Below are positions 2,264 through 2,578 of a DNA stretch of 6,626 nt, piece after piece (the stretch's first letter is position 1; every line of letters starts with the position of its first letter). A program made the position numbers and the translations under genes. The notes under the pieces were generated by a model. The model was given only the letters and a program-made list of their open reading frames with translations, did no database searches and was not told where the DNA came from. The DNA comes from a virus (lineage: Duplodnaviria > Heunggongvirae > Uroviricota > Caudoviricetes). The stretch lies in IMG/VR virus record IMGVR_UViG_2734482581_000014; one strand, 5' to 3'.

Positions 2264-2578
2264 TTACGTAACATCAAACGCTCTAATTGTTCCCAAATCC
2301 TCCAGACCACTCAGCTCCTCTTTCATTTCACGCTGACGGCGATAAATCTCATCGTTGCGATCGACCTGCGCCTGCACCATTGCTGCCGCCAGTTCTTCCA
2401 GTTCCGGCATCGACAGTTTCACCTGCTGCAGTTCCTGCCAGATTCGCTGACCCGTCGGTGCGACATCATCAGCGGTGGCTGTGTAGGGGACTGCCTGGTC
2501 CCTGTCGTCAAAAAAAACGTCACAGTCTACTGCGCCACTTTCGGTATAACGGGGATTAATGATTTTTTTAATTTCCAC
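2264..2578 (-). CDS. Hypothetical acidic protein, 104 aa from a GTG start; possible chaperone for the upstream fiber, family not recognised
   Basis: The track ORF 2264..2638 overlaps the 3' end of the fiber gene by 50 nt. An in-frame GTG at 2576-2578 lies 10 nt after the fiber stop, with GAGGAA 7 nt upstream, giving MEIKKIINPRYTESG...GTIRAFDVT. Position after a fiber gene suggests a chaperone, but the C-terminus lacks the Tfa-family motif seen in the gene at 3881-4426. Confidence 0.5.
   Translation of the reverse strand: MEIKKIINPRYTESGAVDCDVFFDDRDQAVPYTATADDVAPTGQRIWQELQQVKLSMPELEELAAAMVQAQVDRNDEIYRRQREMKEELSGLEDLGTIRAFDVT

Follow-up and report, generated by a model that had tools for sequence, protein, structure and literature searches.

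Why does an acidic open reading frame (ORF) of only 104 codons stand directly behind a tail fibre gene, in the slot where a fibre chaperone is expected, at the end of a prophage of Shigella sonnei? The window analysed here, the whole 6,626-nucleotide (nt) stretch of IMG/VR record IMGVR_UViG_2734482581_000014, is the complete contig CWZT01000195.1 of the S. sonnei draft assembly GCA_001254075.1. The ORF reported in an earlier note on this DNA is indeed present, running from GTG 2578 to TAA 2264-2266, and its product of 104 amino acids (aa) is acidic (isoelectric point 4.34; 22 aspartate and glutamate residues against 12 lysine and arginine residues). We favour, at a probability of roughly three in four, the explanation that it is a strain-specific allele, shortened by an in-frame deletion, of the gene that comes last among the late genes of a defective phiP27-like prophage at ssrA in S. 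sonnei, that the parent of this allele is a fibre chaperone, and that the copy in the window is inert.

The ORF is only 104 aa long because the gene carries an internal deletion of 249 nt. Alignment to Escherichia coli FDAARGOS_944 leaves one clean gap of 249 columns within the gene, and in blastn against S. sonnei CP022457 window positions 1-2428 and 2427-6626, which flank the gap, are each 100.000% identical; the in-frame deletion is therefore the sole difference between the window and CP022457. Residue 50 of a 187-aa parent is fused to residue 134 (junction-spanning sequence, ATCTGGCAGGAACTGCAGCAGGTGAAACTG; sequence to either side of the junction, ATCTGGCAGGAACTG and CAGCAGGTGAAACTG). Slippage between longer repeats was rejected as the deletion mechanism, as the two ends overlap by 2 nt only. 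The allele is unique: the 124-aa protein that gene callers predict from it forms a singleton cluster from one 6626-nt contig, the window itself, and a 33-mer across the junction has no occurrence in the metagenome or viral contig collections. The full-length gene, by contrast, is found in all 80 related IMG/VR viral loci and, at the ssrA locus, in the eight complete S. sonnei genomes examined, so that in related loci the 187-aa form of the ORF is conserved and the 104-aa form occurs in none. Seven of eight complete S. sonnei genomes have a DUF4376 call of 205-207 aa (187 aa when counted from the GTG) behind an identical fibre, the call at this gene in genome L007 being 121 aa. smpB lies close downstream in six of the eight, as in the window; in L006 and L010 the integrase module of another prophage takes its place. 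A short 'orphan' ORF behind a fibre gene can thus be an internal-deletion allele, and comparison with sister genomes reveals this quickly. A different S. sonnei allele, carried by 21 contigs (proteins P0001-P0004), has an in-frame deletion of 5 aa, HMAWG being gone before DADNQQ, which points to repeated small deletions in the S. sonnei DUF4376 gene.

To which family does the parent belong? The ORF had been called unassigned, but PHROG 1141 ('tail fiber protein'; a profile of 194 positions) recognises it at E 2e-37, in a match split into two stretches, and the RefSeq entry for the 124-aa call, WP_052994375.1, is named 'DUF4376 domain-containing protein [Shigella sonnei]'. The known family found is therefore DUF4376/PHROG 1141, and not Tfa. 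In hmmscan the ORF scores 19.7 bits (E 1.2e-3) against Pfam DUF4376 (PF14301), loosely over profile positions 25-96 and below the gathering threshold of 25 bits; the score of the undeleted parent allele is 62 bits, and its domain, at residues 70-175, loses about 60% through the deletion. Because of the 249-nt internal gap, full-length collinear homology of the window ORF to members of PF14301 or PHROG 1141 was not obtained, and an NCBIfam scan of the ORF returned no meaningful match. Its direct homologues are the DUF4376 proteins of E. coli and Shigella (for example WP_000551130.1) and of PHROG 1141. The retained parts differ very little in DNA sequence from E. coli FDAARGOS_944 and are about 72% identical to phiP27 L57 (NP_543109), which occupies the same slot after an Stf-like fibre and is likewise the last gene before the prophage end, but from which the window copy differs in having lost 83 internal residues (51-133). 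In megablast against complete E. coli genomes the region of fibre and ORF is 96-98% identical, always in at least two pieces, and the E. coli counterpart is annotated 'prophage tail fiber N-terminal domain-containing protein' followed by 'DUF4376 domain-containing protein'. Judged by its sequence, the locus belongs to the DUF4376 family by descent, with a product that does not have a complete domain. The family itself is already catalogued (Pfam DUF4376, PHROG 1141, RefSeq names), and the locus is a decaying prophage remnant.

The intact family comprises 1800 homologues, all with PF14301 and mostly of 187-192 aa. Many of the 333 representative clusters, formed at 50% identity, have only residues ~65-185 in common while their N-termini differ, indicating a modular protein. 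The sequence modelled with AlphaFold2 was that of an E. coli member, P0031, which is 80% identical to the FDAARGOS_944 version and 79% identical to the S. sonnei parent allele; at full length it is predicted with a mean local confidence (pLDDT) of 94 and a template modelling score (pTM) of 0.74. The model consists of strands 3-11, 17-23 and 30-34 and helix 41-52, and then of helix 65-88, hairpin 91-102, helix 104-119, hairpin 125-139, the long helix 140-173 and helix 178-183. The intact protein would accordingly have two modules in this prediction, an N-terminal three-stranded sheet with a helix (1-52) and the C-terminal DUF4376 domain (~65-183). A fold search in the BFVD predicted viral structures gave 38 matches at E<=1e-3; the named ones are mostly DUF4376 proteins, drawn from phages of very diverse kinds, and one is named 'phage tail assembly chaperone protein'. 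A PDB sequence search with the full-length protein and the family profile found no relative, and we know of no solved DUF4376 structure. Placed on the model, the deletion would take out helix 2, which is the first of the DUF4376 domain, the first hairpin, helix 3 and half of the second hairpin, and because these elements are gone the 104-aa product is most likely non-functional. AlphaFold2 predicts this product with pLDDT 82 and pTM 0.43, the N-terminal sheet being retained and joined to the last helices, with the confidence minimum at the junction.

We find that the family is tightly coupled to fibre genes. In a set of 80 IMG/VR loci, for which the C-terminal 232 aa of the window fibre served as reference, a homologue of this fibre part ends within ~40 nt upstream of the DUF4376 gene in 79, although the fibres range from ~430 to 1060 aa; the suggestion that homologues follow fibres with the same C-terminal domain is thus borne out. 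The DUF4376 gene lies behind a fibre gene in every examined context with the upstream region available, including phiP27 (L57 after L56), the lambdoid prophage at ssrA of E. coli C5, PhiR5_2 and the virulent Vequintavirinae phage Av-05. The window ORF has the position typical of PHROG 1141: the gene directly before it, to which it is coupled, encodes an Stf-like fibre that shares this C-terminal domain. Across loci the identity of the fibre and that of the DUF4376 protein are correlated (Spearman 0.56), and the phiP27 module has one downstream partner per fibre, Tfa behind the 350-aa fibre and the DUF4376 protein behind the Stf-like fibre. The idea of a moron, or accessory gene at the prophage end, was rejected given the translational coupling to the fibre, the conserved synteny and the presence of the family behind a fibre gene in virulent Av-05.

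What such a partner might do is indicated by related systems. Alteromonas phage V22 needs its DUF4376 protein gp27 to produce a functional gp26 fibre, yet gp27 is not part of the mature fibre (PMC7289586), and the H-fibre of Campylobacter CJIE1 is functional only when the downstream DUF4376 gene is co-expressed (PMC7882524). In published models A5 gp9 and V22 gp27 cap the fibre knob as trimers and pair three N-terminal strands with the fibre head, and DUF4376 chaperones are reported to resemble the trimeric helical caps with beta-hairpin 'tentacles' of the T5 fibre and the K1F tailspike (PDB 4UW8, 3GW6; PMC10579305). Like the parent, V22 gp27 and A5 gp9 have ~190 aa, are encoded directly downstream of a fibre and have three N-terminal strands followed by DUF4376; they differ in client fibre and host, and the window copy is without most of the domain. 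The full-length family member is predicted to have the architecture of V22 gp27, an N-terminal beta-strand module followed by the DUF4376 helical body with its beta-hairpin, and the model, with its helix-hairpin-helix layout, would agree with the reported resemblance to the intramolecular chaperone domains of T5 and K1F. From the characterised DUF4376 proteins we infer for the intact 187-aa protein a role as intermolecular chaperone, or cap, of the Stf-like fibre. The protein would be translated together with the preceding fibre, presumably its client, the 422-aa protein in the window, and would bind the C-terminal head of the fibre as a trimeric cap, aiding trimerisation and folding. For engineering of Stf-type fibres it would be the DUF4376 gene, not Tfa, that has to be co-transferred.

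Tfa proteins are the obvious comparison. Lambda Tfa, Mu U and P2 G (Tfa/Caudo_TAP) are likewise small acidic proteins, encoded just after a fibre gene, that help in fibre assembly, but they have no sequence or profile similarity to the DUF4376 family. PF02413 (Caudo_TAP) gave no match at E<=1 for the window ORF or for its full-length relatives, and the C-terminal Tfa motif is absent, as the earlier note had observed. A profile scan of Mu U and U' returned PF02413 only and no DUF4376, and hhalign of the family alignment against Mu U gave a probability of 0.7%; a published claim that Mu Tfa ends in a DUF4376 domain (PMC7882524) was not reproduced in these two comparisons. By these profile comparisons the DUF4376 family is unrelated to Tfa and makes up a class of its own, presumably of chaperones, that has already been described since 2020. 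The suggestion of a distinct class made in the earlier note therefore holds for the family, which is not Tfa, is coupled to the fibre in 79 of 80 loci and has the domain of proteins shown to be chaperones; it does not hold for the window copy, which is incomplete, known from one contig and part of a dead prophage.

A number of observations weigh against the explanation that we favour. The link to V22 gp27 and to the CJIE1 partner consists in a shared Pfam domain only, with no direct pairwise similarity, and tblastn at E<=1e-3 found no match in an Alteromonas or Campylobacter phage. In the searched literature there is no experimental test of any member of the phiP27 L57 subfamily. Across loci the DUF4376 protein keeps ~70-78% identity while the C-terminal domain of the fibre falls to ~30-40%, an unusual pattern if the two partners are highly specific. 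Only one short-read draft assembly shows the deletion, and since the reading frame, the N-terminal module and the last long helix all survive it, some residual activity is possible.

Does the family act on the fibre and leave, or does it stay? The parent may instead be a structural tip protein or adhesin, comparable to T2 gp38 or Mu Tfa, that remains on the distal end of the Stf-like fibre and aids receptor binding, the window copy being a broken tip. phiP27 L57, Rac-SA53 tail4, Av-05 gp077 and PHROG 1141 are all annotated 'tail fiber protein', Mu Tfa remains bound to its fibre according to a work cited in PMC7289586, and co-inheritance with the C-terminal domain of the fibre fits a tip equally well. 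These annotations are positional, however, and not experimental; V22 gp27 was fully separated from its fibre in size-exclusion chromatography and the fibre was still active (PMC7289586); and sequence conservation runs contrary to the expectation for a receptor-binding tip, the fibre head having diverged far more than the protein. We therefore regard a tip protein as unlikely, though it is the strongest competitor of the chaperone.

A second doubt concerns the allele rather than the family. The strain may have the full-length 187-aa gene, the gap having arisen in short-read assembly across a gene with several paralogues. The allele lies on one 6626-nt draft contig bounded by insertion sequence (IS) elements, S. 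sonnei and related genomes have up to eight places that resemble the region of fibre and DUF4376 gene, a second type of paralogue (P0019) exists, and the junction has no independent occurrence. On the other hand, the microhomology at the junction is 2 nt, whereas misjoins in a k-mer graph need long shared words and yield chimeras rather than clean internal deletions; the two flanks match one and the same locus at 100% identity, not a paralogue; and the 5-aa deletion on 21 S. sonnei contigs demonstrates that real deletions occur in this gene. An assembly artefact is thus somewhat less probable still than a tip protein, and we retain the reading of a genuine deletion in a chaperone gene.

If the deletion is genuine, does it matter to the prophage? 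The prophage appears to be phiP27-like, with a Mu-type baseplate, integrated at ssrA. In complete S. sonnei genomes an IS1 element lies within the baseplate J gene, beyond position 6626, and an IS4-family transposase lies beyond yfjF; the draft contig ends at 6626 because of this IS1, and the window is the unique DNA between two repeats, both IS elements. The tfa gene, which the earlier note had used as an intact reference, is interrupted by a nonsense codon. Codon 17 is CAA in E. coli FDAARGOS_944, where the gene is intact, and in phiP27, while the nonsense codon is common to all eight complete S. sonnei genomes and is therefore fixed in S. sonnei. Gene callers report a tfa product of 162 aa from a downstream start. 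As far as can be read from its genes, the prophage is defective and unable to build tails, for which reason loss of the DUF4376 gene would be without consequence, and the gene is evidently decaying together with the rest of the prophage.

A broader proposal, that a large class of Stf-like side fibres in enterobacteria is served by L57-type DUF4376 proteins as dedicated chaperones or caps and that the 104-aa allele represents the minimal fibre-binding unit of these proteins, strikes us as very improbable. That the 104-aa product is functional, either as a minimal chaperone in which the fibre-binding N-terminal sheet is retained along with the terminal helix, or as a protein recruited by the host for another role, has the least to recommend it of all, for although the frame and the start signals have been preserved and AlphaFold2 still predicts a folded N-terminal sheet and long helix, the allele is a singleton, an in-frame outcome is expected by chance in one case out of three, the prophage of the client fibre has a baseplate gene broken by IS1 and a tfa with a nonsense codon, and pTM falls from 0.74 to 0.43 with the confidence minimum at the junction.

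The signals around the ORF are those of a coupled gene (Table 1). The ribosome-binding site overlaps the stop codon of the fibre gene, as expected from the coupling of start and stop that had been noted, but the spacer to GTG 2578 is 6 nt (TGCACC) and not the 7 nt given before. This GTG is aligned with the ATG starts of the phiP27 and E. coli C5 homologues. Gene callers begin at ATG 2638 instead, which gives 124 aa and an overlap of 50 nt, or 20 residues, with the fibre gene; in other genomes the automated start is at the equivalent position and yields 205 or 207 aa. In view of the aligned starts, the 124-aa call is probably too long. At the prophage end the late operon probably terminates in a hairpin past the stop codon, although this hairpin was absent from the output of a consensus terminator scan. 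On the plus strand, an ORF at 2287-2559 (90 aa) lies antisense to the conserved gene.

Table 1. Coordinates of the features in the window.
Feature	Position	Strand	Basis or remark
yfjF, ratA, smpB			also present in the window
ssrA (transfer-messenger RNA), integration site adjoining the prophage end	1703..2065	plus	ARAGORN
G+C-rich hairpin and T-run, ~47 nt past the ORF stop	2184..2217	minus	direct sequence reading
104-aa ORF, GTG start, TAA stop (2264-2266)	2264..2578	minus	internally deleted allele of 187-aa DUF4376 protein, phiP27 L57 type
Deletion junction, 249 nt (83 codons, parent residues 51-133), 2-nt 'CA' microhomology	2427..2428	minus	alignment and blastn; length recomputed
GAGGAA ribosome-binding site	2585..2590	minus	overlaps fibre stop TGA 2591-2589; direct sequence reading
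Stf-like tail fibre, 422 aa	2589..3857	minus	PF08400 N-terminal domain, PHROG 2636 C-terminal part
tfa (Caudo_TAP), partner of the upstream 350-aa fibre	3881..4426	minus	CAA to TAA at codon 17 (4378-4376)
End of tail module: baseplate J C-terminus, Mu gp48/YmfQ-like protein, 350-aa fibre, Caudo_TAP tfa, 422-aa fibre, ORF		minus	

The gene order of the tail module is that of phage phiP27 L52-L57, with attR just past it, and the arrangement of ssrA and prophage is the same in E. coli C5 and the S. sonnei genomes. A fibre protein identical to the 422-aa protein is found on 674 contigs. Its residues 1-92 match the solved 'tail fiber protein' chain 9e7m (E 4.6e-17) and the 'collar spike protein' 7kjk; a structural template is therefore at hand for the attachment end of the fibre, and none for its C-terminal head.

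Relatives of the DUF4376 gene also occur elsewhere. About 50 records of Stx1a, Stx2a and Stx2c converting phages contain an unannotated match of ~40 aa, 57-61% identical to the C-terminal helix, near the end of the phage record (for example NC_049943.1 56517-56651), which may be a remnant of the same gene. In the P-Eib prophages ORF-191 (AF151674.1 24-611; also in P-EibA and P-EibD) is a 40%-identical full-length DUF4376 homologue just upstream of eib, so that the immunoglobulin-binding eib genes stand directly after a pair of fibre and chaperone genes at the prophage end. Actinobacillus phage vB_Apl-pPE4 (PP818812.1 45403-45963) encodes a 72%-identical homologue, unexpectedly close given its distant host, A. 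pleuropneumoniae.
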